Source of the DNA: Clostridiales bacterium
GTDB lineage: Bacteria; Bacillota; Clostridia; Christensenellales; CAG-314
NCBI GenBank assembly: GCA_003537755.1
Contig: DPQS01000008.1
Location: 11,704-67,787 of the forward strand
Length of the DNA: 56,084 nt
Direction of reading: 5' to 3'
The translations under genes were made by a program, and so were the position numbers. This document shows, piece by piece, positions 33,493-55,518 of the stretch. A model generated the notes under the pieces. It was not told where the DNA came from, did not search any database, and saw nothing but the letters and a program-made list of their open reading frames with translations. Numbering within the stretch: the stretch's first letter is position 1; every line of letters begins with the position of its first letter.

Positions 33493-33496
33493 ATCT

Positions 33497-40532: not shown

Positions 40533-40876
40533 GTTGCGGACGGACATTTTGTCACGTGCGTTTGTTGCAAGGCATCACGGCAACGGCTCAAAAACATTCT
40601 TCGCGCTTAAATGCCGAGTTTTTGTTTTTGTCGCCGAAAAATGTATACGTATGCAAAATTTCATGACATAATTATTGTATTTTTACGCCTTCTTGTTTGT
40701 AAAATCCTGTACGGAGTTGAACACGAAAGGCGTTTTTTTTGCGTTTTTTTTGTGATTTGCAGGAAACGAAAGTCGGTCAATATTTTTTATTATTTTTTGC
40801 AAAGCCCCCGAGTGTTATTTCGATTTGCAGGTATTAGCGAACAAAGAAACAAAAAATTTATTTTTCCTTAAACGTA

Positions 40877-40905
40877 TTGACGTGGCGCACCATCGGTGCT
40901 AAAAT
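40877..40905 (+). promoter_or_regulatory. promoter upstream of the 41005 transporter gene
   Basis: TTGACG (40877-40882), 17-bp spacer, TAAAAT (40900-40905). Confidence 0.55.
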
Positions 40906-40911
40906 AAGTAT

Positions 40912-40943
40912 GGTTGAGTGTGATATCGATATCACACTCAACC
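40912..40943. promoter_or_regulatory. 32-bp perfect palindrome at the predicted transcription start; candidate operator
   Basis: GGTTGAGTGTGATATC|GATATCACACTCAACC is perfectly self-complementary. It has a central CG and TGTGA...TCACA arms, as in LacI/GalR-type operators. Confidence 0.6.
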
Positions 40944-41004
40944 ACAACGACACTGTTTCGTCCGCATTGCAGCGGCGGTATTGTCTGATTAGGGGTTTAC
41001 AAAA

Positions 41005-41889
41005 ATGCAACTTTTGCTTCTTGTTGCAATTCCGCTTCTGGGCACGGTCAAGGTGCTGTTTCAGGGCAAAGCGGTCAAAGGTTACGTGGAAAGTTTGCGT
41101 GACAGTCTGACGCTCGGCTCGGTTACATTTGCAACAATCGCTGTTTGCCTTGCTGCAATTTACCTGCGTGGCGTTCCGTCGCAGACAACTTTGTGGCTGG
41201 GCGTATTGCTTGGCGTGTGCAACGTCACCTTTCAGGTATGTTACAACGTGGCAATGATTAAGGGACCTGTGTCTCTTACGGGCGTTTGCGCCAATTTCAG
41301 CATTATTGTGCCGCTTGCGGTGGGTTTTACCGTTCTCGGTGAACAATTGACCGTCGCCAAGGGCGTTGGCATTGTGTTGATTTTTGTCGCTTTTGTGCTG
41401 CTGCAACGCAAGAACGATGACAAAAAGGTGAATGTGGTGTGGCTGCTTCTGACCGTTGCGACCATGCTTGCGGCAGGCGTAAGCAACGTGGTCATGTCTG
41501 TGTTCAAAACTTTGCCCGTGGCGGAGGAGCGCAACCTGCTCATAGTCGTAAGTAACATTGTATCCGCCGTCGTCAGCATACTGTGTGCCGTAATTTGCGG
41601 CGCGGCAAAGCGGACGTCGGGCGAACGGTTGCTCAAACCTATGTGTCGTGGTTCGTTGCTTTTTGCAATGGCGTCGGGCTTGACGCTGGCGGTGTATCAG
41701 CCGCTTAGCATGTTTGCCCTTACAATGGTAGATGTGTCGGTGTACTACCCCGTAACGGGCGCGTTGGCGGTAATTTTCCTTATGCTGTCGGGCATACCGG
41801 TGTTCAAAGAAAAGCCGACGGTAAAGCAGATAACAGGCGTGTGTCTGGGTGCATGCGCGATAGTGCTGCTCAATTTGCAGAATGCGTGA
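41005..41889 (+). CDS. 10-TM DMT-superfamily permease (possible sugar uptake permease)
   Basis: Two similar 5-TM halves each end in a G-x-x-L-T/x-x-x-G-I/V-x-L-I pattern (LGEQLTVAKGVGIVLIFVAFVLL; FKEKPTVKQITGVCLGACAIVLL). The substrate is unknown. Confidence 0.55.
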   Translation: MQLLLLVAIPLLGTVKVLFQGKAVKGYVESLRDSLTLGSVTFATIAVCLAAIYLRGVPSQTTLWLGVLLGVCNVTFQVCYNVAMIKGPVSLTGVCANFSIIVPLAVGFTVLGEQLTVAKGVGIVLIFVAFVLLQRKNDDKKVNVVWLLLTVATMLAAGVSNVVMSVFKTLPVAEERNLLIVVSNIVSAVVSILCAVICGAAKRTSGERLLKPMCRGSLLFAMASGLTLAVYQPLSMFALTMVDVSVYYPVTGALAVIFLMLSGIPVFKEKPTVKQITGVCLGACAIVLLNLQNA

Positions 41890-41991
41890 CGCAAAGACTG
41901 ACGACATCATGACGTAATTGTAGTGGCGAAAAACAATATTGAAAACCATTCAAGACAAACAATTGAAAACAAATAAAAAGGAAAAGAAAAA

Positions 41992-43131
41992 ATGATTACT
42001 CAACCTAAAGTCAAGTCTGTTCGTTTTGTCAACTTCACCTCGGGCGAAAAAGCCCCCGTAAACACGCTCAGGTGGGACGTAAACGGAACCGATCTCGGCA
42101 TACCGGTGTACAGCGCGAAGGAAAACGCCTTGTGGCTTTTTTACGGCGACACATTTGCAACGCCGCTGCCGTCCGACGTAAACTGGCGCGGCACGGTAAT
42201 CGGCAAAACGCACAATTTCGACTTCTCTCACGGCGTCATGTACAGCGGATTTGTGCCCGACGACGCCGGCAACGCGCTGGGACTCATCGTGCATCACAAG
42301 TCGGACAACGAGGAATACTACGAACGCACCAAAATTTGTCAGGGCGCGGTGGAAGTAGACGGCGTTATGTACGCATTTTACGAGTCTATCCGTCACTGGG
42401 GCGAACCTGGCTATTGGGACGTCAACTACTCCGGCGCAATCAAGTCCCGTGACGGCGGCAAAACGTGGCAACGCGTGTACGACCTTACGTGGACGGCGGA
42501 CAACGACAAGTATCGCGACGTCGTGAAACGCCTTGCCGAAGAGGACGTGGACATGCAACCGAGCGGCGTGACGGTGGACGTCGACAAGCATTTTTGCCCT
42601 GCGTTCGGTCAGATGTACCCGATTTACGGCAAGGACGGCTACGTGTATGTGTACGGTCGTCGCGGCGGCAGACAGTACGGCGCAACAATCGCGCGCGTTG
42701 CCCAACAAAACATCGAACGCTTTGACGAGTACGAGTATTACGTAAACGACAACGGAGTAAGAAGTTGGGTAAAGGGCGCGGACGGGCTTGCCGCAATAAA
42801 CGCGCACGAACGCGAAAGTTACGTCGTTGACCTGCCCGTCAGCAATTTTTCCGTCGCTTACAACAATTACCTCGGCGGCTGGATAGCAATGTACTACAAG
42901 CCCGCTCGCGGGATTGTCATGCGCGTTGCGCCCACGCCCTACGGACCTTTCGGCGACGAAACGGACGTACTGTTGCCCTCGGAAAAACTGCCTTGCGGCA
43001 AAATCGGCTTGTACGGCGGTTTCACTCACGAACTTATGAGCGCAAACGCAGGCAAAACAATCTACTTCATTGCTTCACAGTGGAACACCGAAGCGTACTG
43101 CTCGGAATTGTTTGAACTTTGCTTTGAGTAG
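41992..43131 (+). CDS. DUF4185-domain protein (GH183-like), cytoplasmic paralog 1
   Basis: No signal peptide. Blocks GTDLGIPVY, LWLFYGDTF, NWRGTVIG, VDGVMYAFYESI...WDVNYSG, GYVYVYGRRGG and LYGGFTHE are shared with the two paralogs downstream. Confidence 0.6.
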   Translation: MITQPKVKSVRFVNFTSGEKAPVNTLRWDVNGTDLGIPVYSAKENALWLFYGDTFATPLPSDVNWRGTVIGKTHNFDFSHGVMYSGFVPDDAGNALGLIVHHKSDNEEYYERTKICQGAVEVDGVMYAFYESIRHWGEPGYWDVNYSGAIKSRDGGKTWQRVYDLTWTADNDKYRDVVKRLAEEDVDMQPSGVTVDVDKHFCPAFGQMYPIYGKDGYVYVYGRRGGRQYGATIARVAQQNIERFDEYEYYVNDNGVRSWVKGADGLAAINAHERESYVVDLPVSNFSVAYNNYLGGWIAMYYKPARGIVMRVAPTPYGPFGDETDVLLPSEKLPCGKIGLYGGFTHELMSANAGKTIYFIASQWNTEAYCSELFELCFE

Positions 43132-43208
43132 GCTTTGAGTTGTAAAATAAAAACGCGTTTGTTTGAGCGCGTTCGGCTGAATTTGTTAAAAATCTACGGA
43201 GGTAAAAA

Positions 43209-44588
43209 ATGAAAAAGGCTACAAGTATTTTGTTGCTGTTGGCACTTGTTGCGACATTGGCGTGTGCGCTTGTCGCATGTAATCCTGCCGACGAAGAGTG
43301 GTACGTCGAGGAAGGCGCGGAAGTAATCAATGTCTATCTGCGCGACTTCGAAGAGTGGTCCAACAACTACACGATTGACGCAATTCGTCGTTTCAACAGC
43401 AATCTGACGGACGGTATTCAGGTGGAGTACACGTTGCTGCTTGCGGACCAGTACGAAAACAAGGTTCAATCCGACCGCGAAGCAGGCAAAGCACCCGACG
43501 TGTACCTTATCAGTTACGGCAACCTGCTTACGGCAATCAACTACAACTACATTTTGCCCCTCGAAAACGTGTTGTCGCAAAAGATGATTGATGACATTTC
43601 CGAAAGTGCGAAAAATTACGTTTATCTCAAAGAGCACTTGTACGCCGCTCCCTTCTGCTTCGAGCCGAGCATTATGCTGTTTTACAGCAAAAAGGCGTTT
43701 GCCGCTGCAGGGGTAACTTCCGCACCCGAAACATACGCCGAAATGCTGGACGCATGCGCAAAAATCAAGCCGACGCTCAGCAAAGCGCAGTACGTGGTGG
43801 GCACGCCCAAGGGACTGCCTATGGGCTGGGCTAACATCGGTCAGTTCTACAATGCGGCAGGCGGCAATCTGCCACTGTCCGATGACTGGAGCGAAAGCCT
43901 TGTAATGCAAAACAAGGAAGGATACAAGTCTTTCCTTAATTACTACACGTCGCTGTACACCAAAGGTTACACGCCCTTGCAGGATTGCGCCGGCGGTTAC
44001 AACGAAATCATCCGCGAAGTGTGCGAAGGTCGTGCCGCAATGACATTTGCAGGCAGTTACGCCGTAAGCACAATCTACGACGAATACCCCGAGTGCGTTG
44101 ACGACATCGAAGTTGCGGTAGTTCCCACCATGGACGGCACCAGCAACGTCGCGACCACGACAAACGGCGGTTGGTCGTACGTACTTGACGCAGCCACGGC
44201 AAAACGCACCGGCGCAGACGGACGTACTCATGCCGAACTTGCCGCAAAATTCCTTGAATTTCTGCTTACCGACAGCGAAGTCGCGCCGGAATACTTTGAA
44301 AAGGCAAACTACTGCAAATCGGCAGGTTACAACAGTGTAATTGTCGCAACCGGCAAAGAGGGCGAGAGCAACAAATACTACGCCGAAATCGCTCGCGCGG
44401 CAAGCAATGCAATCGCAACGCCGCTGTACAACTACGACATCACGACGGAATGCTCCAAGATGATCGAAGAAATGGTAATCAACGGCAAATCAGCCGATCA
44501 GGTGATAACCACATTCGACAACATGGTGAAGCAAATAATCAGGCAAAGCGGACTTGCGGGCAACAACCCTGCCTACCGCGGTAATTAG
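43209..44588 (+). CDS. extracellular solute-binding lipoprotein (carbohydrate ABC importer)
   Basis: GGAGG SD is present. The signal and lipobox read MKKATSILLLLALVATLACALVAC. The ~459-aa size is typical of family-1 sugar SBPs. Confidence 0.8.
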   Translation: MKKATSILLLLALVATLACALVACNPADEEWYVEEGAEVINVYLRDFEEWSNNYTIDAIRRFNSNLTDGIQVEYTLLLADQYENKVQSDREAGKAPDVYLISYGNLLTAINYNYILPLENVLSQKMIDDISESAKNYVYLKEHLYAAPFCFEPSIMLFYSKKAFAAAGVTSAPETYAEMLDACAKIKPTLSKAQYVVGTPKGLPMGWANIGQFYNAAGGNLPLSDDWSESLVMQNKEGYKSFLNYYTSLYTKGYTPLQDCAGGYNEIIREVCEGRAAMTFAGSYAVSTIYDEYPECVDDIEVAVVPTMDGTSNVATTTNGGWSYVLDAATAKRTGADGRTHAELAAKFLEFLLTDSEVAPEYFEKANYCKSAGYNSVIVATGKEGESNKYYAEIARAASNAIATPLYNYDITTECSKMIEEMVINGKSADQVITTFDNMVKQIIRQSGLAGNNPAYRGN

Positions 44589-44599
44589 TCGAGGATAAA

Positions 44600-45526: not shown

Positions 45527-45537
45527 GGAGGCATACA

Positions 45538-46446: not shown

Positions 46447-46466
46447 AGTTTTTGGGAGAGTACAAA

Positions 46467-47555
46467 ATGAATTTGTCAAATCTTAGCAATATTTTCAAAA
46501 AGAGAGATTTTACTCGCAAACGTCTTACCAGTTACGACAAGACGGGCGGAAACGACGACCGTCTGCACATCGCACCCGGTCAGACCGTCACGATTGCAAC
46601 CGACCGCGGCGCAGGCGTAATTACACACATCTGGACTACGCTTCTCAACGCACCCGAATGGGAACGCAACTGCCTCAGAAAAATCGTCGTTACCATGTAC
46701 TGGGACGACAGCGATCACCCGTCGGTACAGGCACCTATCGGCGACTTTTTCGGTATGGGGCACGCAATGAGCAAGAACTATGTTTCCGCGCCTTTGCAAA
46801 TGAGTCCCGAAAACGGACGCGGCTTCAACTGCTGGTGGCCGATGCCCTTCAAAAAGAGTTTCCGTATCGACATCACCAACGAGTGCAACACCGAATTGTT
46901 GTTCTACTTCTACGTCGATTACGAAATTCACGCGCAAGCCGACCCCGACGCGATGTACTTCCACGCGCTGTGGAACAGACAACTGACCGTCGGACACGAC
47001 AAGGCAAACTTTGAAAACCACGACAAATGGTGCTTTACGGGCAACAACCTTGACGGCAGCGAAAACTACGTCATTCTTGACGCGGAAGGCGAAGGCATTT
47101 ACTGCGGTTGCAACCTTGGCATACACAACCTTGACCAGACCAAACACTGGAACTGGTGGGGCGAGGGCGACGACATGATTTTCGTGGACGGCGCAAAGGT
47201 GCCCACATTCAACGGCACCGGCTCGGAAGACTACATCAACACTTCGTGGTGTCCCCAACAGGAATACAACGCACCCTATCACGGAATTATCCTCGGAGGA
47301 ACGGAAAACTGGGGTGGCAAAATCGCCGTTTACCGTTACCACATTCAGGATCCGATCAACTTCAACAAGTCCGTCAAGGTTACAATCGAACACGGACACA
47401 ACAACAATCGCAGCGACGACTGGTCAAGCGTGGCTTACTGGTACCAGACGAGTATTCACAGCGCGTTTGCACCTATCGCGCCCGTTGCCGAACGTATGCC
47501 CGTTGACGAAAACGCATTGAAGTGGGGCGACACGCCGATACTGGAAAAGGTGTAA
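46467..47555 (+). CDS. DUF2961 / GH172-family glycoside hydrolase (cytoplasmic)
   Basis: GGGAGAG SD precedes ATG 46467. LTSYDKTGGNDDRLHIAPGQTVTIATDRGAGVITHIWTT and GEGDDMIFVDG...GTGSEDY match my recollection of the DUF2961 jelly-roll family. Confidence 0.75.
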   Translation: MNLSNLSNIFKKRDFTRKRLTSYDKTGGNDDRLHIAPGQTVTIATDRGAGVITHIWTTLLNAPEWERNCLRKIVVTMYWDDSDHPSVQAPIGDFFGMGHAMSKNYVSAPLQMSPENGRGFNCWWPMPFKKSFRIDITNECNTELLFYFYVDYEIHAQADPDAMYFHALWNRQLTVGHDKANFENHDKWCFTGNNLDGSENYVILDAEGEGIYCGCNLGIHNLDQTKHWNWWGEGDDMIFVDGAKVPTFNGTGSEDYINTSWCPQQEYNAPYHGIILGGTENWGGKIAVYRYHIQDPINFNKSVKVTIEHGHNNNRSDDWSSVAYWYQTSIHSAFAPIAPVAERMPVDENALKWGDTPILEKV

Positions 47556-47669
47556 ACAAAGGTCTTACGGATTGTGCAGTACAACGCCCGCAGCAAAATA
47601 CCCGTTGCAGGGGTTGTATTGCTACCCGACGTGGTAAATCCGAAAAATAAAAAACAAGGAGAAAGAAAA

Positions 47670-50258
47670 ATGAAACACGGCAAATCAATGAGAATGCTTT
47701 GCGTTGTTTTGGCTTTGACAATCGTACTCGGCTGTTGCGCGTTTACCGCTTTGGCAGAAGACAGTACGCTTGAACTGTGGGCTGCTCTTACCGCAGACGG
47801 CACGGACTACTTCACTCAGACGGGTGACGCGGCGGCGCAGGTCTACAAGGAAAGTAAGGGCGAACAAAGCAACAAGTTTATCCGTATCACAGCAGGTAAC
47901 AGCGGCAAACAGTGGGGCTCGTTCGGGCTTAACACCGACGTACTTGCCACGGCAGGACAGTACCGCGTAGAGTTTGACGCCCGTATTCCCGAGGACTACA
48001 ACTCCGACAACTTCTACATCGCGGCGTACTTCCCCACTGTTTCCAAGACCCTTGCGGGCAGCAAAGAAGCACTGACGGCAATTATGGGCGAGGCAAACGA
48101 GTGGGGCTTCAGACACATCGTTGCGGAACTTGACGTGACAGGCTCGGGCGCAAGCGTGTTGAAATTCGGTCTTAACTGCGCAAACGGCAGTTACATCGAC
48201 ATCGACAACGTGGCAGTTTACAAGCGTACTTCCGACGTATCCTACGGCACGGAAAACCTTGCAGGCGCAAACTGCGACTTCGAAGAGTTTATGGAAAAGG
48301 GCGGCAGTAAAACTTTGACCGCCGACTGGGACAACTATCCTTTCCGCGCGGCAGCAGACGCAGGCACGGCAAGCCTTGTGTACCTTACCGAAACGAGTGC
48401 GGGAGTGCGTCTGAATCGTGAAACGACAGGCTTCGCTTCCTTCGTCAAGGACTCCGTCAAAGGCTACGCGGCAGGCACCTACACGGCGCGCGTTACGTTG
48501 ATTGCAGACAGCGGATTTACCACCGACAACATCGGTTGCCGTATCAACAAAGACGGCGGTACGCTTGCCGACAACATCAGCCTGACCGGCGCAATTACCG
48601 CAGACGGCAGGACGGAAAGCGTACTTACGGGCACCTACACAGTTGAGGCTTACGCCGAATGGACGCACTTCAACATGTGGTGCAACATCACGACGGCGGG
48701 CAAAGGTCTGACAATTACCAAGATTGAAATTCTCAATGCCGAAGGTAACAACATCGACACTCGCGGCGACCTCAGCAAAATAAGCGTTCCCTCGACGGAA
48801 ACCCTTACCGGACTTGTTTCGAAAGGTTGGGCGCACGGCTACTATGTACCCGAAAGCGACTTTGCTACGACAAGCATTGTCAAGGACGGCGACGACATCG
48901 TGCTTAAAATGGCACCGAGCGGCAGCGGTATTGCATTTACTTCTGTTACAAAGTCTGTCGACACGACAAAGATTTTGCCGGGCAAAACTTACGCAATCAG
49001 ACTGTCCGTCAAGGGCGGAAGTAAGTTTGCTACCAACAACTTCGGCTTCGGTTTGCCGACAAACAACATGGGACGTATCGAAAGCACGATTTCTTACGCG
49101 GGCATTTCTGCTACGGAAAGCGTAGTAAGCGGACTTATCACCCTTCCTGCAAACGCTGTGCTGATGGGCAACATGGACATCTGGCTGAGCAACAACGGGC
49201 TTACCGACGCGGACAACTATCTGCTTGTGGACGACATCGAAATCGTAACCGTGTCCGACGCTACGTTCAGCGCGGATCTCATCAAGGGCGAAGACGAAAC
49301 TTCTGTCGGCGCAATGGAACACATCGAATACGTACAGCAACCTGCCCTTCGCGAAACGCCCTCGGTAGACGGACTGTACAAGGCAATGCTGTTTAAGCAA
49401 GGCGACTTCGAAAACTACGACGAAGGCTTTACTTTCGGCGAAGCAAACGCTTACACGGCTTACTGGGGCAGCGTAAATCTCGACGCGCCAGGAAAAGTAG
49501 TGAAGGACGGCACAAACAAAGTTGCAAAAATCGCTTGGGACGGCAACACGAACCACAGATATTCTTCTATGTACATTCTTACCGACCCCGACGAAATGGC
49601 AACTGAAGGCGCGGTGTTCGAACTGACGTTCAGTTACAAACTGACAGGTAATTCCGCCCTTGCAAACGTGGCGTTTATCGGCGCAAGCAACAGTTCGGAT
49701 TTCTGTATGGACCTTGACGCGGTAAAAGGCGCAGGTACCTACTACACAAGCGGCGCAAATATGGACATTTACCGCTACTACGTGACAGAAAGCGATGTTG
49801 AAGGCTGGTTTAATGTACGTTTGGTATTCAAGGCTAACATCGGTCTCAAGATGCGCAGCAACTCTGTACGTTTCCTGCTCGACACGGCGCAGAACAATGA
49901 CAACGCGCTGTACATCGACAACGTAAACCTTGCGCTGTACGAAGCGGAATGCACTCACCACGTTGACGAAAACGCCGACGCCAAGTGCGACAAGTGCAAT
50001 GCGACGTTGGAATGCACCAATCACGTAGACGCCAACAATGACGGCAAGTGCGACATCTGCGGCAAACAATTGCCTTGCACCGAACACACAGACGCAAACA
50101 ACGACGGAAAATGCGACAAGTGCGGAGCAGACATGCCCAAGGAAGAAAAGAAGGGCTGCTTCGGCGTTGTTGAAATCGGCGGCGCGGCACTCATGTCTGT
50201 ACTGGCTCTCGCGGCGGTAGTGCTTGCGGCAAAACGTCCTTCGAGGAGACAAAAATGA
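47670..50258 (+). CDS. secreted multi-CBM-like surface protein with Cys/His/Asp repeats and a C-terminal TM anchor
   Basis: AAGGAG SD precedes ATG 47670. The signal peptide reads ...GCCAFTALA-EDS. Four CBM4/9/22-style module ends are seen (YIDIDNVAVYK, LTITKIEILN, LLVDDIEIVTV, LYIDNVNLALYE). The C-terminal hydrophobic helix GGAALMSVLALAAVVLAA is followed by KRPSRRQK. Confidence 0.65.
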   Translation: MKHGKSMRMLCVVLALTIVLGCCAFTALAEDSTLELWAALTADGTDYFTQTGDAAAQVYKESKGEQSNKFIRITAGNSGKQWGSFGLNTDVLATAGQYRVEFDARIPEDYNSDNFYIAAYFPTVSKTLAGSKEALTAIMGEANEWGFRHIVAELDVTGSGASVLKFGLNCANGSYIDIDNVAVYKRTSDVSYGTENLAGANCDFEEFMEKGGSKTLTADWDNYPFRAAADAGTASLVYLTETSAGVRLNRETTGFASFVKDSVKGYAAGTYTARVTLIADSGFTTDNIGCRINKDGGTLADNISLTGAITADGRTESVLTGTYTVEAYAEWTHFNMWCNITTAGKGLTITKIEILNAEGNNIDTRGDLSKISVPSTETLTGLVSKGWAHGYYVPESDFATTSIVKDGDDIVLKMAPSGSGIAFTSVTKSVDTTKILPGKTYAIRLSVKGGSKFATNNFGFGLPTNNMGRIESTISYAGISATESVVSGLITLPANAVLMGNMDIWLSNNGLTDADNYLLVDDIEIVTVSDATFSADLIKGEDETSVGAMEHIEYVQQPALRETPSVDGLYKAMLFKQGDFENYDEGFTFGEANAYTAYWGSVNLDAPGKVVKDGTNKVAKIAWDGNTNHRYSSMYILTDPDEMATEGAVFELTFSYKLTGNSALANVAFIGASNSSDFCMDLDAVKGAGTYYTSGANMDIYRYYVTESDVEGWFNVRLVFKANIGLKMRSNSVRFLLDTAQNNDNALYIDNVNLALYEAECTHHVDENADAKCDKCNATLECTNHVDANNDGKCDICGKQLPCTEHTDANNDGKCDKCGADMPKEEKKGCFGVVEIGGAALMSVLALAAVVLAAKRPSRRQK
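49950..50138 (+). repeat. three in-frame 63-bp (21-aa) tandem repeats C-T-x-H-x-D-x-N-x-D-x-K-C-D-x-C
   Basis: The repeats are CTHHVDENADAKCDKCNATLE, CTNHVDANNDGKCDICGKQLP and CTEHTDANNDGKCDKCGADMP. Confidence 0.85.
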
Positions 50259-51508
50259 GTAACAAATTAAGGTTTGCGGCAATTGTGATGTGCGCCGTAA
50301 TTGCTTTGTCGGTGGTGGGGCTTGTCGCTTGTAACGGTGACAACCCCGATACGCCCGACAATCCGGACAAGCCCGAACCCACCCCTATCGGCACGCCGCT
50401 CAAAGTTTATTCCGACAAAATTTCGTCGGTTTACGACGTGGCAATGCTGACAGGACCGAGTGGCAAAACAAACACCCATGCCGACTGGGGCATAGGCGGC
50501 ACCGACCTCGGTTTTCCGTACTACGACGCTACAAACAACAAGATGATGTTTCTGTTCGGCGACACCTTTTCTTCCGTAAACAAAGGCAATGCCGGCTGGC
50601 GCAGTAACGTGCTGGGCGTGACGAGCGACTTCGACGCAAGCGACGGCATCACATTTGACAGTTTTGTCTGCAACATGCCGGGCATGGCTAAGCAGGTTAT
50701 CGACTCGGTGCACGACACAAGCAACGAGGGCGAGTACACAAGTATTCCCACGGGCGGTATCGAACTTAACGGTACGCATTACGTGTTTTACATGGCAATC
50801 AAGGATTGGCAATACAACACCTGGAATGTCAACTACTGCAACGTTGCCAAGTCCACCGACGGCAAAAACTTTGTCAAGATGAACAACCTGTACTGGCTCA
50901 ACTCTTCTGCGAAAAACAGCCGTGCCGAAGCAAACGTCATGAGTACTCTCGGCGTAAGCAAAGCCGATGCGGCGGGTCACGTTGCGCCTGCGTTTATGCA
51001 GATTTTCCCCTACATTTACGGCGACTACGTGTACATGTTCGGGCTTCCCAGCGGAAGAAGCGGCGGAGTGAAACTTGCGCGCGTGCTGAAAGCGGACATA
51101 GAAAGTTTTGACAAGTATCAGTACTACTACGACGGCAACTGGTACACAGGCGCGGAAGGGCTTGCCAAGGTCAAGGACGAAATGGACGAAGCCTCGTATG
51201 TGGTCTTGCCCACCGTCGGCGAAGTGTGCGTGTCTTACAACAAGTACCTTGAGGCGCACATGATGACCTACTACACCAACAACAAAATCGTGTTCCGCAC
51301 GTCCAAGGACCTTGTAAAGTGGTCCAGGGCGGAAACAATCGTCACCAATGCGGAATTTTTGCAACTGTATGGCGGTTTTACGCACGAAAAGTACACAAGC
51401 GACGACGGCAAGACGGTGTATCTCATGTTGTCCAAGTGGTACAACTACGTCGATTCGAGCGACCCGACGGGTTACAACGTGCGAGTACTTAGTTTTACAT
51501 TAAACTAA
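50255..51508 (+). CDS. DUF4185-domain (GH183-like) lipoprotein, extracellular paralog 2
   Basis: ATGA overlap with the upstream stop. Lipobox VVGLVAC followed by a Pro/Asp-rich linker (NGDNPDTPDNPDKPEPTP). Blocks GGTDLGFPYY, MMFLFGDTF, GWRSNVLG, GDYVYMFGLPSGRSGG and LYGGFTHE are present. Confidence 0.6.
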   Translation: MSNKLRFAAIVMCAVIALSVVGLVACNGDNPDTPDNPDKPEPTPIGTPLKVYSDKISSVYDVAMLTGPSGKTNTHADWGIGGTDLGFPYYDATNNKMMFLFGDTFSSVNKGNAGWRSNVLGVTSDFDASDGITFDSFVCNMPGMAKQVIDSVHDTSNEGEYTSIPTGGIELNGTHYVFYMAIKDWQYNTWNVNYCNVAKSTDGKNFVKMNNLYWLNSSAKNSRAEANVMSTLGVSKADAAGHVAPAFMQIFPYIYGDYVYMFGLPSGRSGGVKLARVLKADIESFDKYQYYYDGNWYTGAEGLAKVKDEMDEASYVVLPTVGEVCVSYNKYLEAHMMTYYTNNKIVFRTSKDLVKWSRAETIVTNAEFLQLYGGFTHEKYTSDDGKTVYLMLSKWYNYVDSSDPTGYNVRVLSFTLN

Positions 51509-51523
51509 TCCGTTATTAACTGA

Positions 51524-51556
51524 TAAGGCAGTCGGATTTCGTATTCGGCTGCCTTA
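51524..51556 (+). other. 13-bp stem-loop after the lipoprotein gene (terminator-like but without a U-tract)
   Basis: TAAGGCAGTCGGA (51524-51536) pairs with TTCGGCTGCCTTA (51544-51556, two G.U pairs). The following sequence CAACTAAAACG lacks a T-run. Confidence 0.4.
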
Positions 51557-51569
51557 CAACTAAAACGAT

Positions 51570-51599
51570 GTTGACAAAATGTCAACAAAATAGTATTAT
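51570..51599 (+). promoter_or_regulatory. promoter with a palindrome overlapping the -35 (candidate operator)
   Basis: TTGACA (51571-51576), 17-bp spacer, TATTAT (51594-51599). GTTGACA-AAA-TGTCAAC (51570-51586) is an inverted repeat with 7-bp arms. Confidence 0.5.
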
Positions 51600-51613
51600 T
51601 TCAGGAGAGCATT

Positions 51614-52735
51614 ATGTCGTATGTAATTTATCCCAAAACAAAGCATGTGGCAAAAATCAAGGAATTGTCTGTGCTTCTCGGAAGCAAGGCGTACAGCCCG
51701 ACGACAAAATACAACGTCGGCGGCAGCGACCTCGGCATACCGTGCTACGACGACAAGCGCGGCAAAATGTACTTCTGGTTCGGCGACACTTTCCGTGAGG
51801 AAAACCTGATCGGCAGTGACTGGCGCAGCAACACCGTGGGCATCTCGCAATGCAAGGATTTGTCCGAGGGCATTGTGTGGGACGAGTTTTTGTGCGACGA
51901 CGACGGCAAAGCGGTGGAAGTTACCAATTCCAAAAAGACGGAAAACGACCTTTGCGAGGAAGTGACAAACATCCCGACCGGCGCAATCTGTGTAGGCGGC
52001 GTGCATTACATGTTTTACATGTCCATTGCCAAGTGGCTTCCCGGCATCGGCTGGATTGTCAACTACAATGGCGTAATGAAGTCCGTTGACGGCAAGCACT
52101 TTACGCGGTGCAAAGAAATGTACTTTACCTGCGCCAACAAGGAAGTTGCGACAAGGCTTCTCGGGATAAGCGACGACGACTACGAGGCGCATTTGCATCC
52201 CGGCTTCGCGCAGGTTTTTCCCATTCTTGCCAATGACGGCTACGTGTATCTGTTCGGACTTGAGGCAGGAAGACACGGCGGCGTCAAGCTGGCACGCGTA
52301 AAGCCGGGCGACATCGAGGATATGAGCAGGTACGAATATTTTTTGAAGGACGGCAGTTATCTGCGCGGCGACGAAGGGCGCGTTCGCTCGGCAAACGAGG
52401 ACTGCGAAATAGTGCCGCCCGACGTAGGAGAAATTTCCGTATGCTACAGCCGCTATCTCGGCAAATACGTAATGACCTACCTGTCCGACAAACCTTGTTC
52501 GAGGGAAACGCCCGGCATCGTCATGCGCGTAAGCGACAATCTGACAGAGTGGAGCGAAGCGGAATTAGTGCTTAGCTATTACGACTACTACAAGTTGTAC
52601 GGCGGCTTTATGCACGAAAGACTTGCCTCCGACGACGGTAAAAAAATGTACATGTTGTTGTCGCAGTGGACTTCGCCGCGCAAGCGCGACCACGGCTACA
52701 ACGTAAAACTAATGGAGATTACACTTAAAAAATGA
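51614..52735 (+). CDS. DUF4185-domain protein (GH183-like), cytoplasmic paralog 3
   Basis: AGGAGAG SD is present and there is no signal peptide. Blocks GGSDLGIPCY, MYFWFGDTF, DWRSNTVG, DGYVYLFGLEAGRHGG and LYGGFMHE are present. Confidence 0.6.
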   Translation: MSYVIYPKTKHVAKIKELSVLLGSKAYSPTTKYNVGGSDLGIPCYDDKRGKMYFWFGDTFREENLIGSDWRSNTVGISQCKDLSEGIVWDEFLCDDDGKAVEVTNSKKTENDLCEEVTNIPTGAICVGGVHYMFYMSIAKWLPGIGWIVNYNGVMKSVDGKHFTRCKEMYFTCANKEVATRLLGISDDDYEAHLHPGFAQVFPILANDGYVYLFGLEAGRHGGVKLARVKPGDIEDMSRYEYFLKDGSYLRGDEGRVRSANEDCEIVPPDVGEISVCYSRYLGKYVMTYLSDKPCSRETPGIVMRVSDNLTEWSEAELVLSYYDYYKLYGGFMHERLASDDGKKMYMLLSQWTSPRKRDHGYNVKLMEITLKK

Positions 52736-53727
52736 CAATTGACGAAATTGCACGTATGACGGGCTATTCGCGGGCGACGGTGGCAAGGGCACTGTCGGGC
52801 AAGGGCTATTGCGGCAAAGACAAAAAGGAACAAATTCTGCGCGTTGCAAAGGAGGGCGGCTACCGCCCCAATTACTCTGCGCGGTGTCTGAGAGAAGACA
52901 AAACAAACAGAATACTGGTGTGCTTGCCCAACTTCAACAACTCTTTCTACTTCGACCTTGTCAGCGGACTTACGGAAAAGTTTGCCGAAAGCGGTTACTG
53001 CGTGATGCTGTTTGACAGCGGCGGCGATTCGCAAAAGGAACTTGAAAGCATAAACATGCTCAACCAGAAATATTGCGACGGACTGGTGTTTGTTTCGTTG
53101 GACTTCAACGACGACAACATCGCGGCGGTGCGTGCTTCGGGGCGACCTGTGGTGCTGACAAACCGTTACCTGGGACTGCGCGACGACGACAATTTCGACT
53201 ACGTGTACCTTGACCACGAAAAGGCAATGTACAAGGCAACGACCCACCTTATCGATTGCGGTTGCAAACGCATTGCGCTGTTTGTAGGTAACGACGAACA
53301 ACAGACCTCGCGTGAACGTACTCAGGGTTACTACGCCGCGCTTAACGAACGCGGAATTGCCGTTGACAAAAGCCTTGTCATTGACGCGGGTTTTAAGGAG
53401 GACGTTGCGGCGACGAAGTTTGCCGAACTGGCAGGCGGCGGCGCGGATTTTGACGGCGTAATTGCTGCAAGCGACCTTATGGGTATGGGTATTTACCGGG
53501 CGGCAAAAAGTTGCAATCTGCAGATAGGGCGCGACTTCAAAATGGTGTCGTTTGACAACACCGATTTTACGACAATTGCCACGCCGGGTATTACGTCCAT
53601 CGACATGCGACAAAGGGAAATAGGTGCCAATGCCGCAATGCTGCTTACCGAGCGTATTCGCGGACGTAAGCAAAGCAAAACGGTAGTACTTGAACCGCGC
53701 GTAATCGTGCGCGATTCGTCAAGATAG
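52732..53727 (+). CDS. LacI/GalR-family transcriptional regulator
   Basis: ATGA overlap with the upstream stop. The N-terminal HTH reads MTIDEIARMTGYSRATVARALSG. The periplasmic-binding-protein-like core has the usual blocks (ILVCLPNFNNSFY, RIALFVG, VSFDN). Confidence 0.85.
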   Translation: MTIDEIARMTGYSRATVARALSGKGYCGKDKKEQILRVAKEGGYRPNYSARCLREDKTNRILVCLPNFNNSFYFDLVSGLTEKFAESGYCVMLFDSGGDSQKELESINMLNQKYCDGLVFVSLDFNDDNIAAVRASGRPVVLTNRYLGLRDDDNFDYVYLDHEKAMYKATTHLIDCGCKRIALFVGNDEQQTSRERTQGYYAALNERGIAVDKSLVIDAGFKEDVAATKFAELAGGGADFDGVIAASDLMGMGIYRAAKSCNLQIGRDFKMVSFDNTDFTTIATPGITSIDMRQREIGANAAMLLTERIRGRKQSKTVVLEPRVIVRDSSR

Positions 53728-53774
53728 GACAAACAATCGGCTGAAATTTTACGGTTTTGAAAAGGACTGAAATT

Positions 53775-54365
53775 ATGTACAAAGATTTACTTACGGAATT
53801 TATGACGGCGGAGAAAAACGCCGTAGACGAACTTATACGACAGACGGGAAAGCAGTACGACAAAGTAATCGACGCGCTTCTCGGGTGCCGCGGCAAAGTG
53901 GTGTTTTTCGGCATAGGCAAAAGCGGACACATCGGCGCGAAACTTGCCGCAACCTTTGCCAGCACCGGCACGCCTGCTATGTTTGTACATGCGGCGGAAG
54001 CGCGCCACGGCGACTTCGGCATGATCGAGCAGCGTGACGTTGTAATTTTGCTTTCCCACAGCGGGACGACAAGTGAAACGACGTCTGCGGTAGCCTCGCT
54101 TAAAAACATCGGTTGCAAGACCATTGCCTTTTGCAAGAGTGCCGACAGCCTGCTTGCCAGGGAGTGCGACCTTGCAATCAACTACCCATTTGACAAGGAA
54201 GCCGACCGCATGGGCGTAGCACCCAGCAGCAGTACCACGGTACAACTGGTGCTTGGCGACGCGATCGGGCTTACGCTGTCCGCGCTCAAGGGCTTTACAC
54301 GAGAAGATTTTCACAAGTTTCACCCGGGCGGCGCACTGGGCAAAATGCTGGAGGAACACAAATGA
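53775..54365 (+). CDS. single-SIS-domain D-arabinose 5-phosphate isomerase (KpsF/GutQ-like, no CBS domains)
   Basis: VVFFGIGKSGHIGAKLAATFASTGTPAMFVHAAEARHGDFGM, VVILLSHSGTTSET and APSSSTTVQLVLGDA match the API SIS-domain signature. The protein ends at ~196 aa, before any CBS pair. Confidence 0.7.
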   Translation: MYKDLLTEFMTAEKNAVDELIRQTGKQYDKVIDALLGCRGKVVFFGIGKSGHIGAKLAATFASTGTPAMFVHAAEARHGDFGMIEQRDVVILLSHSGTTSETTSAVASLKNIGCKTIAFCKSADSLLARECDLAINYPFDKEADRMGVAPSSSTTVQLVLGDAIGLTLSALKGFTREDFHKFHPGGALGKMLEEHK

Positions 54366-55276
54366 GCGTACTTGTAGTAGGCAGTTTTGTAACAGACCTT
54401 GTCGCGCTGTGCGAACGCGCACCCGAGGCAGGCGAAACATTGCACGGCAAAGAGTTTAATATCTACCTCGGTGGCAAAGGCGCAAATCAGGCTGTTGCGG
54501 CAAAGCGCATGGGCGCAGACGTGACGATGGTAGGGTGTGTAGGTAACGACATTTTCGGTGACGACTTTGTAAAGACATTTACCGAAGAAGGTTTTGACAC
54601 GCAGTACATCAAACGCACGAGCAACGCTCGTACGGGTTGCAGCCTTGTTACCCTTGAAACCAACGGACAAAACCGCATCTGTATGACACCGGGAGCAAAT
54701 CTCGAGTTTACGACCGACGACCTGTATGCGCTGGAAAGCCTTGTAGAAAAGGCAAACATAGTGGTGACTCAATGCGAAATGCGTCCCGAGATAGTTGACG
54801 AACTGGCAAAACTTTGCACAAAACACAACAAAAAATTTGTGCTGAATCCTGCCCCTGCCCGCACGTTCAAGGGCGAAACGCTTGCGGCGTGCTACGTAAT
54901 ATCGCCCAACGAAACGGAACTGGGGGTAATAGTGGGTCGCACGCTTAACACCGACGAAGAGTTTGTGTCCGCAGCAAAGGAACTGCTTACAAAGGGCGTA
55001 AAGAACGTAATAGTTACGCTTGGCAGCCGCGGAAGCCTGCTCGTAAACGCAGATACTACGCAGATTGTGCCTGCCATGAAAGTGAAAGCGGTGGACACGG
55101 TAGGCGCAGGCGACTCGTTTACCGGCTCGCTTGCGGCGTTCCTTGACGAAGGAAAGGATGTGTTGTCGGCGATGAAACTTAGTACGATTGTGGGCGGCTT
55201 GCAGGTACAGAAGCACGGTGCGATTCCGTCCATGCCCTACCGCGCGGAAGTGGACAAAGTGGCAAACGGCAAGTAA
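54362..55276 (+). CDS. ribokinase-family (PfkB) pentose kinase
   Basis: ATGA overlap with the upstream stop. GGKGANQAVAAKRMGA (ribokinase signature 1) and DTVGAGDSFTGSLAAF (signature 2) are present. The N-terminus reads VVGSFVTD. Confidence 0.8.
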   Translation: MSVLVVGSFVTDLVALCERAPEAGETLHGKEFNIYLGGKGANQAVAAKRMGADVTMVGCVGNDIFGDDFVKTFTEEGFDTQYIKRTSNARTGCSLVTLETNGQNRICMTPGANLEFTTDDLYALESLVEKANIVVTQCEMRPEIVDELAKLCTKHNKKFVLNPAPARTFKGETLAACYVISPNETELGVIVGRTLNTDEEFVSAAKELLTKGVKNVIVTLGSRGSLLVNADTTQIVPAMKVKAVDTVGAGDSFTGSLAAFLDEGKDVLSAMKLSTIVGGLQVQKHGAIPSMPYRAEVDKVANGK

Positions 55277-55415
55277 CATGTTGCCTTGCTCGGTAACGAA
55301 AAAATTGATACGTATACGAAAATCCTTTACAAATTGTTGATTGTTTTCTTGAAATCGTGCAAATTGTGTGTGGCTTTCCTGAAGTAATAAAAAACGAATA
55401 AAAAGAATAAATACG

Positions 55416-55456: not shown

Positions 55457-55460
55457 GAAT

Positions 55461-55496: not shown

Positions 55497-55518
55497 AGTT
55501 GTTGCGACGTAATCGAAC

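Follow-up and report, generated by a model that had tools for sequence, protein, structure and literature searches.

A predicted D-arabinan utilization operon with a candidate kinase-first route for D-arabinose in a human-gut Clostridia bacterium

D-Arabinan is an unusual sugar polymer of the cell walls of mycobacteria and corynebacteria. Its breakdown is described for a PUL of Microbacterium arabinogalactanolyticum (Shimokawa et al. 2023, PMC10509167), whose genes are induced by D-arabinose and cell-wall extract and which includes an exo-β-D-arabinofuranosidase of family GH116, and for PUL42 of Dysgonomonas gadei (PMC10115798; bioRxiv 10.64898/2026.08.13.744632). The sole GH183 activity on record is that of an endo-D-arabinanase (PMC10115798, PMC10509167), with D33, D51, and E243 as the defined residues (PMC10509167), and in EndoMA1 mutating the glutamate E243 nearly abolishes activity. 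Here we compare with these systems an operon of an uncultured Clostridia species, lying in a 56-kb stretch of DNA (56,084 nt) that we refer to as the window.

Layout and control of the operon

The operon contains 12 co-oriented genes on the + strand (41005-55276, ~14 kb), as judged from the ORF list, Pfam, and NCBIfam, coding for three GH183/DUF4185 proteins, one GH172/DUF2961 protein, an ABC importer, a four-domain surface protein, a LacI repressor, a SIS isomerase, and a ribokinase-type kinase; the first gene codes for an additional permease. The whole row lies behind one promoter-like site and one candidate operator and is closed by a strong terminator. A preliminary description of this DNA had placed the same twelve genes at these positions, several joined by 4-nt ATGA overlaps (50255, 52732, and 54362), and both the genes and the overlaps are present.

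40877..40905, + strand: promoter-like site, TTGACG-17-TAAAAT with a TG extended -10; 10/12 matches in a consensus scan
40912..40943, no strand: candidate LacI-family operator, a perfect 32-nt palindrome with core TGTGATATCGATATCACA at 40919-40936
41005..41889, + strand: EamA/DMT-family permease, first gene of the operon; 294 aa; Pfam EamA 1.8e-10
41992..43131, + strand: GH183a, cytoplasmic DUF4185/GH183 paralog; 379 aa; PF13810 200 bits; no signal peptide
43209..44588, + strand: SBP_bac_1/8 lipoprotein of a CUT1-type sugar ABC importer (Pfam); lipobox LVAC
44600-45526 and 45538-46446, + strand: two BPD_transp_1 permeases (Pfam)
46467..47555, + strand: cytoplasmic GH172 (DUF2961); PF11175 281 bits
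47670..50258, + strand: surface protein; 862 aa; signal peptide and C-terminal TM anchor
50255..51508, + strand: GH183 lipoprotein; 417 aa; PF13810 230 bits; lipobox LVAC
51571..51599, + strand: internal promoter-like site, TTGACA-17-TATTAT; 11/12 matches, the best of the region
51614..52735, + strand: GH183c, cytoplasmic DUF4185/GH183 paralog; 373 aa; PF13810 220 bits; no signal peptide
52732..53727, + strand: LacI-family repressor; LacI HTH and Peripla_BP domains (Pfam)
53775..54365, + strand: single-SIS D-arabinose-5-phosphate isomerase; 196 aa; KdsD/KpsF-like, without a CBS pair
54362..55276, + strand: ribokinase-family PfkB kinase; 304 aa; TIGR02152 338.7 bits
55414..55456, + strand: intrinsic terminator, a 19-bp stem followed by a U run

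Three of these starts differ from those of the ORFs: the surface protein begins at 47670 (ORF 47574-50258), which gives it a signal peptide, and the GH172 and the isomerase probably begin at ATG 46467 and at 53775 (ORF starts 46452 and 53757, respectively).

The first gene begins 100 bp downstream of the promoter-like site, the -35 box of which coincides with the start coordinate (40877) of the preliminary description. The adjoining palindrome is unique in the window and gave no hits in 100 shuffles, and exact copies of its core, TGAYATCGATRTCA, lie upstream of locus genes in the related loci L007 (twice), L011, and L017, whereas chance alone would give ~0.02 exact matches in 1.57 Mb. LacI orthologs with 38-47% identity are found in related loci with the common operator motif, and we predict that LacI represses the 40877 promoter through the palindrome until an arabinose-derived inducer arrives. 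The internal promoter-like site overlaps another palindrome, TGTTGACAAAATGTCAACA, at 51569-51587. The terminator RNA folds at -27.4 kcal/mol (z = -8.9), with 0/200 shuffles equally stable. The EamA permease has a conserved counterpart (77%) in L003 alone, a Clostridia MAG from the Hadza gut and the closest of the genomes; an identical locus is present on a human gut metagenome contig.

Capture, import, and hydrolysis of the glycan

From the genes present, their conserved residues, and their genomic surroundings, we propose that this is a LacI-controlled operon with which an uncultured human-gut Clostridia species would use D-arabinan or α-D-arabinofuranosyl oligosaccharides, and we put the probability of this reading, with the whole mechanism that follows, at about 0.7. 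The preliminary description had likewise read the locus as a D-arabinofuranoside utilization system, which GH116 neighbors and FucI/FGGY genes in sister loci and the GH172 residues strongly support.

The hydrolases fall where that description had put them, with Pfam models assigning three proteins to DUF4185 (GH183), all above the PF13810 cut-off of 39.5 bits and all matching EndoMA1 (8hhv), and one to DUF2961 (GH172); as it had also claimed, one GH183 is a lipoprotein, and the other two and the GH172 lack a signal peptide. The lipoprotein (6e-29 to EndoMA1) conserves D33, D51, and E243 and is predicted to be an extracellular endo-α-D-arabinofuranase; its gene is translationally coupled to that of the surface protein through the ATGA overlap. 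GH183c (3.4e-22) also has the complete triad, whereas GH183a (2.7e-22) keeps D33 and D51 equivalents and has an N in place of E243, the third essential carboxylate, as do its orthologs in L003 and L014. The missing Glu of GH183a counts against the D-arabinan reading. In the cytoplasm the two paralogs would shorten imported oligosaccharides, from which the GH172 would take off terminal α-1,5-D-Araf.

The GH172 keeps the catalytic residues E270, E291, D292, W267, and W298 (reference set from PMC8605356), and its PDB matches include 4kq7 (1e-83), αFFase1 (7v1v, 3e-73), Dg79/DgGH172c (8ah3, 4e-71), and ExoMA1 (1e-31). The nearly equal matches to αFFase1 and Dg79 would fit an operon for α-D-fructofuranosides (difructose dianhydrides or caramel-type sugars, for instance), with an αFFase1-like GH172, a PfkB fructokinase, and a SIS hexose-phosphate isomerase; fructofuranosidases do exist within GH172 (PMC8605356), and dietary sugars of this kind reach the human gut, the habitat of the host. 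However, the enzyme lacks the αFFase1 +1-subsite residues E85 and K147, needed there for inulobiose/DFA I activity, and has the 'WCP' Cys, which in BACUNI_00161 was described as clashing with Fruf. Dg79, the closest characterized relative of the enzyme, shares this motif and is a selective exo-α-1,5-D-arabinofuranosidase with no DFA I activity. The three GH183 genes, belonging to a family known only for endo-D-arabinanase activity, also argue against fructofuranoside use, as do the KdsD-like SIS protein with all its API residues, the kinase, to which the fructokinase model gives just 84 bits (cut-off 450), and the FucI, FGGY kinase, transketolase, and GH116 genes of sister loci. We thus consider fructofuranosides a very improbable substrate, and predict that the GH172 is an exo-α-1,5-D-arabinofuranosidase of the Dg79 rather than the caramel/DFA type.

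The surface protein has four β-sandwich CBM-like domains and three Cys-rich CxxxxDxNxDGKCDxC repeats. It had been called a multi-CBM protein with a signal peptide and a C-terminal anchor; both of the latter are there, but the CBM assignment is supported at the level of the fold and by no sequence model, as no Pfam family matches and the sole hit is CBM_4_9 at E=0.068. An AF2 model of moderate quality (pLDDT 72, pTM 0.40) gave Foldseek hits to a CBM22 tandem (4xup, 2.5e-9), SGBP-B (7kwb), and EndoMA1 (8ic1, 8e-5), and from these folds we propose a role in glycan capture. Homologs number only five among 5.8 billion proteins; a partially similar protein (26-32%) adjoins the GH183 lipoprotein gene in related loci, directly upstream in L004, L005, L007, L008, and L010. 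That the protein matches no curated CBM family, and that the kinase exceeds the ribokinase equivalog cut-off (see below), both count against the D-arabinan reading. Outside the cell, the anchored protein and the co-translated GH183 lipoprotein would bind and endo-cleave α-1,5-D-arabinan, and the products would enter through the lipoprotein SBP and two permeases. Matches to SBP_bac_1/8 and BPD_transp_1 agree with the importer type previously named; in the PDB, only distant oligosaccharide-binding SBPs match. A motif scan found no LSGGQ-type ABC signature anywhere in the 56-kb window, and hence the importer has no ATPase at the locus, as had been noted; a shared MsmK/MalK-type ATPase encoded elsewhere may power it. 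The related locus L083 has a MalK-like ATPase inside the cluster.

We find the SBP-permease-permease-GH172-GH183 module again in no fewer than 15 loci in Bacillota and Acholeplasmataceae. The earlier statement that such a locus is undescribed outside Bacteroidota and Actinobacteria fits the searchable literature, but the arrangement is widespread in Bacillota genomes and not special to this organism. GH116 adjoins GH183 in four of the loci (L016, L017, L018, and L033). The present locus has neither GH116 nor a second GH172 type. As annotated, its enzymes could not take the β-1,2 caps off mycobacterial arabinan, and the α-1,3 branches would probably stay in place as well; the natural substrate may thus be another D-Araf glycan or one of simpler structure.

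The polymer would probably come from arabinogalactan or lipoarabinomannan that Corynebacterium, Mycobacterium, and relatives have shed, or from other D-Araf glycans. A target that is not of the mycobacterial type, such as linear α-1,5-D-Araf chains like those of Pseudomonas pilins, D-Araf O-antigens, gut-bacterial capsules, or a furanosidic glycan not yet described, overlaps with the D-arabinan reading in that the mechanism is alike and the polymer source differs. It would suit a sole, α-1,5-selective GH172 without GH116 or a broad-specificity partner, the two cytoplasmic GH183 paralogs, one with an altered catalytic residue, and the tiny, lineage-specific surface-protein family, and D-Araf does occur in some LPS structures and pilins (Al-Jourani et al., PMC10115798). 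Yet every GH183 assayed so far acts on the arabinan of AG and/or LAM, with pilin oligosaccharides cleaved by some of them only, GH116 is present in related Bacillota loci, and a GDSL esterase fusion in L005 would fit esterified actinobacterial arabinan; we regard such a target as rather unlikely.

Entry of D-arabinose into central metabolism

Under the D-arabinan reading, the last two genes would complete catabolism. The SIS protein is a single-SIS A5P isomerase, as previously claimed: it matches the NCBIfam models for KdsD (8.7e-56) and KpsF/GutQ (3.8e-54), with 6-phospho-3-hexuloisomerase at only 2.7e-9; its PDB matches are 5uqi (6.5e-58), the E. coli KdsD SIS domain (2xhz, 1e-38), and B. 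fragilis 3etn (1e-31); CBS domains are absent, and all API residues (K59, H88, E111, E152, and H193) are conserved. The description of its partner as a ribokinase-like kinase also stands, with a score above the TIGR02152 equivalog cut-off (299.65) and conserved sugar-binding residues D16, K43, N46, E143, and D255; such a protein would consequently receive an ordinary ribokinase annotation. Its lid has Ser at the E. coli RK A98 position and Val at I100, positions that face the arabinose 2-OH (PMC9604405). Position 98 is Ala in 4/4 characterized RKs, these four sequences being the entire canonical background, and Ser or Gly in nine of the 12 SIS-linked kinases, with Ala retained in three. The A98G change in E. 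coli RK raises kcat for D-arabinose 15-fold (PMC9604405), and human RK converts D-arabinose to D-Ara-5-P (PMC11591822).

We propose that the kinase is a D-arabinofuranose 5-kinase, phosphorylating O5, and the route appears to run from D-arabinose through D-arabinose-5-P to D-ribulose-5-P and the pentose-phosphate pathway; the location of the isomerase gene beside a kinase in a catabolic glycan operon implies the A5P to Ru5P direction. We found no description of a kinase-then-isomerase route for D-arabinose in the literature.

Alternatively, the operon could serve D-arabinan while its last two genes code for an ordinary ribokinase and an anabolic or regulatory A5P isomerase making A5P for a surface glycan or signal, with D-arabinose catabolized by enzymes elsewhere, for example by the fucose pathway. 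In favor of this reading, the kinase passes the equivalog threshold with every ribose-binding residue in place, a SIS homolog in Companilactobacillus has no PfkB neighbor, and known APIs serve biosynthesis (of Kdo and capsule and in phage DNA arabinosylation; PMC13326640). Against this, SIS and PfkB form an adjacent pair in nine GH183- or GH172-containing loci and in three RbsD-linked cassettes (RbsD/FucU-SIS-PfkB), of which that of Sporolactobacillus terrae adds an MFS transporter, transaldolase, transketolase, and LacI. The pair occurs in the window, L003-L007, L017, and L082, and an L-fucose/D-arabinose isomerase (FucI) in L009, L013-L016, L018, L024, and L033, accompanied by an FGGY kinase in L016, L018, and L024; none of the loci compared has both FucI and the pair, and in the Lachnospiraceae locus L017, PfkB and SIS lie directly upstream of DUF6259, the slot that FucI fills in L033. 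L082 and L087 also contain transketolase or transaldolase genes; in L082, transketolase lies between SIS and PfkB. The 4-nt overlap of the two genes inside a LacI-controlled operon and the altered lid residue 98 in 9/12 kinases also weigh against an anabolic pair, which we judge unlikely. No cultured strain is represented among the SIS/PfkB loci recovered.

Comparison with described systems

Cech et al. reportedly described a single-SIS API of C. tetani in 2017. The isomerase of the window resembles the single-SIS APIs in size (~196-200 aa) and in having one SIS and no CBS domain (PDB 5uqi/5vhu; B. fragilis 3etn); however, known APIs are biosynthetic or, in Gram-positives, without an assigned role, whereas this one lies in a catabolic operon. 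The kinase shares its fold and its sugar-binding and catalytic residues with bacterial RbsK (TIGR02152; E. coli 1rkd), but lies outside an rbs operon, is paired with an API, and has Ser/Val at A98/I100.

Like the present locus, Dysgonomonas PUL42 is from the human gut and combines GH183 endo- with GH172 exo-enzymes, among them Dg79, which the GH172 of the window resembles. PUL42 is a Bacteroidota SusC/D-type system with periplasmic processing, three GH172 enzymes of differing linkage preference, and a fucose isomerase for D-arabinose catabolism, in contrast to the ABC importer, cytoplasmic processing, single GH172, and absence of a fucose isomerase here.

The Microbacterium PUL, although from an actinobacterium and not a Clostridia species, has the Gram-positive layout in common with the window: several GH183 paralogs, secreted endo-enzymes, a cytoplasmic GH172, a CUT1-type ABC importer with an SBP_bac_8-type SBP, and genes taking D-arabinose into the pentose-phosphate pathway. 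It differs in that two of the three GH183 paralogs of the window are cytoplasmic, in that the CBM-like domain is fused to EndoMA1 instead of forming a separate anchored four-domain protein, and in the catabolic step, given for Microbacterium as 'an isomerase and a kinase' (PMC10509167) and here consisting of a ribokinase-type kinase and an A5P isomerase. Loci of this type occur in other organisms as well, and the predicted architecture of the present one follows the known Gram-positive model.

Organisation, control and surroundings of the operon

The twelve co-oriented genes of the preliminary description are present on the + strand as one compact transcription unit (40877-55456); every family named there was confirmed by Pfam and NCBIfam, and the three ATGA overlaps are real. 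We consider it probable (about 0.72) that together they form a D-arabinan utilisation system; every activity is predicted from the genes present, their conserved residues, the topology of the proteins and the context in other genomes.

Features of the operon (window coordinates; families by Pfam/NCBIfam)
40877-40905, +, sigma-70-like promoter (TTGACG-17-TAAAAT, with TG before the -10 box)
40912-40943, perfect 32-nt palindrome downstream of this promoter, candidate operator
41005-41889, +, EamA permease
41992-43131, +, DUF4185 protein (GH183a)
43209-44588, +, substrate-binding protein (SBP_bac_1/8)
44600-45526 and 45538-46446, +, two BPD_transp_1 permeases
46452-47555, +, DUF2961 protein (GH172), likely true start 46467
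47574-50258, +, surface protein of no family, likely true start 47670
50255-51508, +, DUF4185 protein (GH183 lipoprotein)
51614-52735, +, DUF4185 protein (GH183c)
52732-53727, +, LacI regulator
53757-54365, +, KdsD-like SIS-domain protein without CBS domains, likely true start 53775
54362-55276, +, PfkB kinase, above the NCBI ribokinase equivalog cut-off (NCBIfam)

The last stop codon is followed by a hairpin whose 19-bp stem ends in a U run (-27.4 kcal/mol, z = -8.9 by RNA folding). The core of the candidate operator, TGTGATATCGATATCACA, occurs once in the window and in none of 100 shuffles. Related loci were recovered from other genomes by a GH183 profile scan of one genome per species, followed by tblastn of the twelve window proteins against these loci. 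Exact copies of the 14-nt palindrome core TGAYATCGATRTCA were found in three of them (two in L007, one each in L011 and L017), with a chance expectation of ~0.02 in the 1.57 Mb examined; all four copies are intergenic and in front of locus genes. L007, L011 and L017 each also encode a LacI ortholog (38-47% identity). Together this supports a predicted LacI regulon conserved among related loci.

A second promoter-like site (51571-51599; TTGACA-17-TATTAT) lies between the GH183 lipoprotein and GH183c genes and, with 11 of 12 matches, is the best in the region; it could drive separate transcription of GH183c, LacI, SIS and kinase genes. Its -35 box is within a 19-nt palindrome, TGTTGACAAAATGTCAACA, such that the whole feature spans 51569-51599, and an imperfect hairpin (~51528-51554) lies upstream; a second regulator may act at this internal site.

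The G+C content of 42001-54000, within the operon, is 0.50-0.53, compared with 0.42-0.49 in most of the remaining window, which is compatible with horizontal acquisition and does not demonstrate it. An exact 32-nt direct repeat is present at 55519-55550 and 55700-55731, the latter copy covering the 3′ end of a tRNA-Glu(CTC) gene (55711-55786, - strand); the former is a stray tRNA 3′ fragment, possibly the scar of an integration event. The idea of a tRNA-bounded island found no support and was rejected, as these are the only two copies in the window, 181 bp apart, with none upstream of the locus. An Rfam search of 40000-56084 returned nothing beyond the tRNA. The stretch 31538-34372 is low in G+C (0.38, versus 0.45-0.52 elsewhere) and may be an islet of defence or mobile genes: its products are a small membrane protein, a DUF2971 protein and a regulator with a WYL/WCX domain.

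A contig of 66 kb from a human gut metagenome carries an identical locus, and 90%-identity clusters of the locus proteins have 100 to 330 member sequences each. Among species-representative genomes the closest is a MAG recovered from Hadza gut samples ('uncultured Clostridia bacterium'), in which gene order is preserved with 73-95% amino-acid identity. A separate host-glycan cluster with its own ABC importer lies upstream of the operon, which fits a gut glycan forager:

7357-31236, +, glycan cluster with GH20-like protein, GH112 lacto-N-biose phosphorylase, two permeases, SBP, GH123-like protein and GH38 alpha-mannosidase

This cluster, which resembles a system for host N-glycans or one of mucin type, also includes two very large proteins of no family (1070 and 1297 aa), a GH78-like protein and a DUF6259 protein whose tail is GH42C-like.

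Glycoside hydrolases and the surface protein

All three DUF4185 proteins belong to GH183 as proposed, with PF13810 scores of 200 (GH183a), 230 (lipoprotein) and 220 bits (GH183c) against a gathering cut-off of 39.5. Each matches the crystal-structure sequence of EndoMA1, the endo-alpha-D-arabinanase of Microbacterium arabinogalactanolyticum (6e-29 for the lipoprotein, 2.7e-22 for GH183a and 3.4e-22 for GH183c), and its D33 (nucleophile) and D51 (acid/base) are retained in all three paralogs, in TDLG and FGDTF motifs. The roles of these residues and of the third essential carboxylate, E243, come from the EndoMA1 study (PMC10509167). At the E243 position the lipoprotein and GH183c have Glu; GH183a has Asn, as do its orthologs in two related loci, forming a cytoplasmic subclade as judged by pairwise identities.

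Asn-bearing GH183 proteins, all with both catalytic Asp residues
Window, 41992-43131 (N in PVSNFSV)
L003, 979-2118
L014, 9992-11140

In EndoMA1, E243A and E243Q nearly abolish activity (PMC10509167), and DgGH4185b with the equivalent Glu-to-Ala change is still active (PMC10115798). We also note GH183 relatives (33-34% identity) in three loci (L027, L029 and L035) whose contigs were assigned to MAGs labelled Candidatus Thorarchaeota or 'uncultured archaeon'; these genes may be truly archaeal or may be there through faulty binning.

The DUF2961 protein likewise falls in GH172, at 280.7 bits to PF11175 (gathering cut-off 27), and for the identical protein the precomputed domain matches comprise GH172_1st, GH172_dom and GH172_2nd. 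Its structure matches are BACUNI_00161 (1e-83), the GH172 fructofuranosidase alphaFFase1 (3e-73), the Dysgonomonas gadei GH172 Dg79/DgGH172c (4e-71) and the Microbacterium ExoMA1 (1e-31). The catalytic pair E270/E291 together with D292, W267 and W298 (alphaFFase1 numbering; roles from PMC8605356) is identical in the window enzyme. The +1-subsite residues E85 and K147, which alphaFFase1 needs for inulobiose/DFA I (PMC8605356), fall in alphaFFase1-specific insertions, both of which the window protein lacks. Directly after W298 the window protein shares a Cys ('WCP') with BACUNI_00161 and Dg79, where the alphaFFase1 type has a Gly that gives room for the extra C1 hydroxymethyl group of Fruf; the BACUNI_00161 Cys is reported to clash with fructofuranose (PMC8605356). 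The window GH172 thus departs from alphaFFase1-type DFA I synthase/hydrolases at both places. Dg79 itself acts selectively as an exo-alpha-1,5-D-arabinofuranosidase and lacks DFA I activity. We reject the fructofuranoside/DFA reading on these subsite residues, on the family scores of the kinase and isomerase and on the neighbouring genes.

The 862-aa surface protein had been described as multi-CBM, which is reasonable at the level of fold and does not stand as a sequence-family assignment, there being no curated CBM family to place it in. Pfam and NCBIfam searches yield no family, the only match being to CBM_4_9 at E=0.068 (14 bits, versus a cut-off of 25.9), and a search of 5.8 billion proteins found just five relatives. 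Its AF2 model (pLDDT 72) has four beta-sandwich domains, for which Foldseek matches include a CBM22 tandem, other CBM-like jelly rolls, a Bacteroides surface glycan-binding protein and EndoMA1 (8ic1, 8e-5). The last match presumably runs through the putative CBM domain of EndoMA1, which bound arabinotetraose in the crystal (PMC10509167). The modelled likeness to the CBM22 tandem and EndoMA1 is a resemblance, not membership of CBM4/9/22-like families, and the surface protein would represent a new candidate family of D-arabinan-binding proteins. In two related loci the gene directly after that of the GH183 lipoprotein encodes a product containing a CBM_4_9-like region (L005 11222-13681 and L004 7729-9411); the L005 protein also has a C-terminal GDSL esterase domain and could remove ester groups (succinyl, mycolyl) from arabinan.

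Protein topology divides these components between cell surface and cytoplasm. The SBP and the 417-aa DUF4185 protein both have an LVAC lipobox, and the surface protein begins with a signal peptide and ends in a TM helix followed by a basic tail; in GH183a, GH183c and GH172 the N-terminus leads directly into the catalytic domain. We propose that the CBM-like surface protein would capture the polymer for extracellular endo-cleavage by the GH183 lipoprotein. Oligosaccharides would be imported by the ABC system with an ATPase from elsewhere in the genome, the ABC ATPase signature being absent from the entire window as the preliminary description had it, and then trimmed in the cytoplasm by GH183a, GH183c and a GH172 predicted to be alpha-1,5-selective. 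The PfkB kinase would phosphorylate the released D-arabinofuranose, and the SIS protein would convert the kinase product to Ru5P.

As annotated, such a locus, with neither GH116 nor a broad-specificity GH172, should leave beta-1,2 caps uncut, and probably alpha-1,3 branch points too. The exo-beta-D-arabinofuranosidase of the Microbacterium locus belongs to GH116 (PMC10509167), and a tblastn search of the whole window found no relative of this family. The system may be confined to alpha-1,5 stretches that are linear or to a different D-Araf glycan, other genomic loci may contribute, or the cytoplasmic GH183 paralogs, including the form with Asn for E243, may have new non-endo specificities that replace the missing GH116 and second GH172.

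Related loci and the proposed fate of D-arabinose

A block of SBP, two permeases, GH172, in some cases a surface protein, and GH183 recurs in Oscillospiraceae, Christensenellaceae, Lachnospiraceae and other Clostridia, in Herbinix, Anaerotaenia torta and Paenibacillus lautus, and in soil Bacillota MAGs and one Acholeplasmataceae MAG. With versions in dozens of Bacillota genomes, this type of locus is not peculiar to the window. In four loci (L016, L017, L018 and L033) a GH116 gene follows GH183.

The loci differ most informatively in their catabolic genes. The L-fucose/D-arabinose isomerase FucI is encoded in eight Bacillota loci (L009, L013-L016, L018, L024 and L033), three of which also have an FGGY kinase; the SIS and PfkB pair is present in the window, L003-L007, L017 and L082, and none of the recovered loci has both. 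The cultured species Anaerotaenia torta (DSM 100431) and Paenibacillus lautus represent the FucI route, and L017 is from a Lachnospiraceae genome. L017 and L033 share the order DUF6259-SBP-permeases-GH183-GH116, with 69-75% identity in DUF6259 and GH116, and the slot directly upstream of DUF6259 is occupied by FucI in L033 and by PfkB and SIS in L017. Fucose isomerase is the most abundant carbohydrate-active protein in D. gadei growing on D-arabinan. From this exchange within a slot, the mutual exclusion and the D. gadei abundance, it is most likely that both alternatives do the same job, conversion of D-arabinose to D-ribulose-5-P.

The SIS protein matches the KdsD model at 8.7e-56 and was aligned to 5uqi, the E. 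coli KdsD SIS domain (2xhz) and the B. fragilis A5P isomerase (API). All five of K59, H88, E111, E152 and H193, in the numbering of the E. coli KdsD literature, are present in the 2xhz and 5uqi alignments. At 196 aa it covers only the first 153 of 268 positions of TIGR00393, scoring 184.1 bits (cut-off 203.7), and has no C-terminal CBS tandem, and is therefore predicted to be of the single-SIS API subtype. A role as a 6-phospho-3-hexuloisomerase or in another SIS function was rejected, the RuMP_HxlB match being 2.7e-9 versus 8.7e-56 for KdsD.

The kinase scores 338.7 bits to TIGR02152 (cut-off 299.65) and keeps D16, G42, K43, N46, E143 and D255; lid residue A98 is Ser. The E. coli ribokinase (RK) sequence used in this lid alignment agrees in numbering with PMC9604405. 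Ribokinases can phosphorylate D-arabinose at O5, and human RK is in preparative use for this (PMC11591822). E. coli RK acts poorly on D-arabinose, but its kcat rises 15-fold with the lid mutation A98G, since A98, I100 and I110 point towards the 2-OH of the sugar (PMC9604405). Position 98 is Ala in all four characterised RKs compared (E. coli, human, V. cholerae and S. aureus); of the twelve SIS-linked kinases aligned, six have Ser there (including the window's), three Gly and three Ala. This pattern is no more than suggestive, the background set of four RKs being small.

The contexts of SIS homologs lend additional support to the proposed kinase plus isomerase pathway. In L082 a transketolase gene lies between SIS and PfkB, and L083 has the order DUF6259-GH172-...-MalK-like ATPase-SIS-PfkB. 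Stand-alone RbsD/FucU-SIS-PfkB cassettes are found in three loci (L084 880-2869, L085 7567-9525 and L087 7505-13917); in Sporolactobacillus terrae, genes for an MFS transporter, transaldolase, transketolase and LacI come after the cassette, and in two other loci its neighbours are an amidohydrolase and an ABC transporter of the Bmp type, a hint that the pentose may come from a nucleoside-like or other source. A pyranase/mutarotase would be needed by a free-sugar furanose-kinase pathway, and in glycan loci GH172 would give the furanose directly (for the anomer data, see PMC10509167). We regard a kinase-first D-arabinose pathway through PfkB and SIS as moderately likely. We lean slightly towards the fuller proposal that the kinase and single-SIS API form a pathway from D-arabinofuranose via D-arabinose-5-P to D-ribulose-5-P, displacing the fucose-isomerase route in D-arabinan loci of some Bacillota and occurring also as free-sugar RbsD/FucU-SIS-PfkB cassettes, as in Sporolactobacillus.

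Two further proteins recur in these loci. The first, a DUF6259 protein of ~735-770 aa with 43-69% identity across Bacillota GH183/GH172 loci, is a candidate uncharacterised D-arabinan-active enzyme.

Recurrent DUF6259 genes (also in L013, L015, L016 and L018)
L011, 12211-14436
L017, 4244-6451
L024, 14331-16571
L033, 2853-5060
L083, 2216-4528

The gene is directly upstream of SBP in L013, L015-L018 and L033, and lies between ABC permease genes and a GH gene in L011 and L083 (GH172) and in L024 (second GH183). The window's own DUF6259 protein (27663-29795) is unrelated: we rejected it as part of the D-arabinan system, as it has no tblastn similarity to the related-locus proteins and belongs to the upstream host-glycan cluster. 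The second, a 672-aa protein of no Pfam family, adjoins GH183 in L024 (18608-20626), L019 (~4646) and Bacteroidota L026, L042, L048 and L062 (51-57% identity), and may be a further unannotated component common to Bacillota and Bacteroidota loci.

Comparison with known D-arabinan systems

The cell envelope of mycobacteria and corynebacteria has D-arabinan as its scaffold. To our knowledge, no enzyme that cuts D-arabinan was found before 2023, and the known sources are limited to Actinomycetota, Bacteroidota, Myxococcus, one actinophage and one parasitic member of the Patescibacteria. If our reading is true, D-arabinan foraging extends to Clostridia and other Bacillota, including a species recovered from human gut metagenome assemblies, and the cytoplasmic GH183 paralogs and the E-to-N variant would be new enzyme variants for dissecting lipoarabinomannan and arabinogalactan. 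A kinase-first pathway, if true, would explain A5P isomerases in Gram-positive bacteria that make no Kdo, and the comparative data render the long-standing question of their role there testable.

We found no description of a Bacillota D-arabinan locus in the Microbacterium or D. gadei papers, a 2026 GH172 preprint, or the searchable literature since 2023 on D-arabinan and D-arabinofuranosidases, a body of text outside which most subscription journals lie and in which absence is no proof. The same searchable literature, again with most subscription journals beyond its coverage, yielded no description of a D-arabinose kinase/API catabolic route. The D-arabinose-induced Microbacterium PUL is defined by a GH183, GH172 and GH116 triad (PMC10509167), and the window locus resembles it in combining a secreted GH183, an ABC importer and a cytoplasmic GH172 in one regulated cluster; unlike it, the window locus carries no GH116. 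What is new here is the phylum, the accessory set and a different, apparently undescribed downstream pathway, in a locus whose architecture is that of the Microbacterium Gram-positive PUL and whose predicted enzymology is that of D. gadei PUL42.
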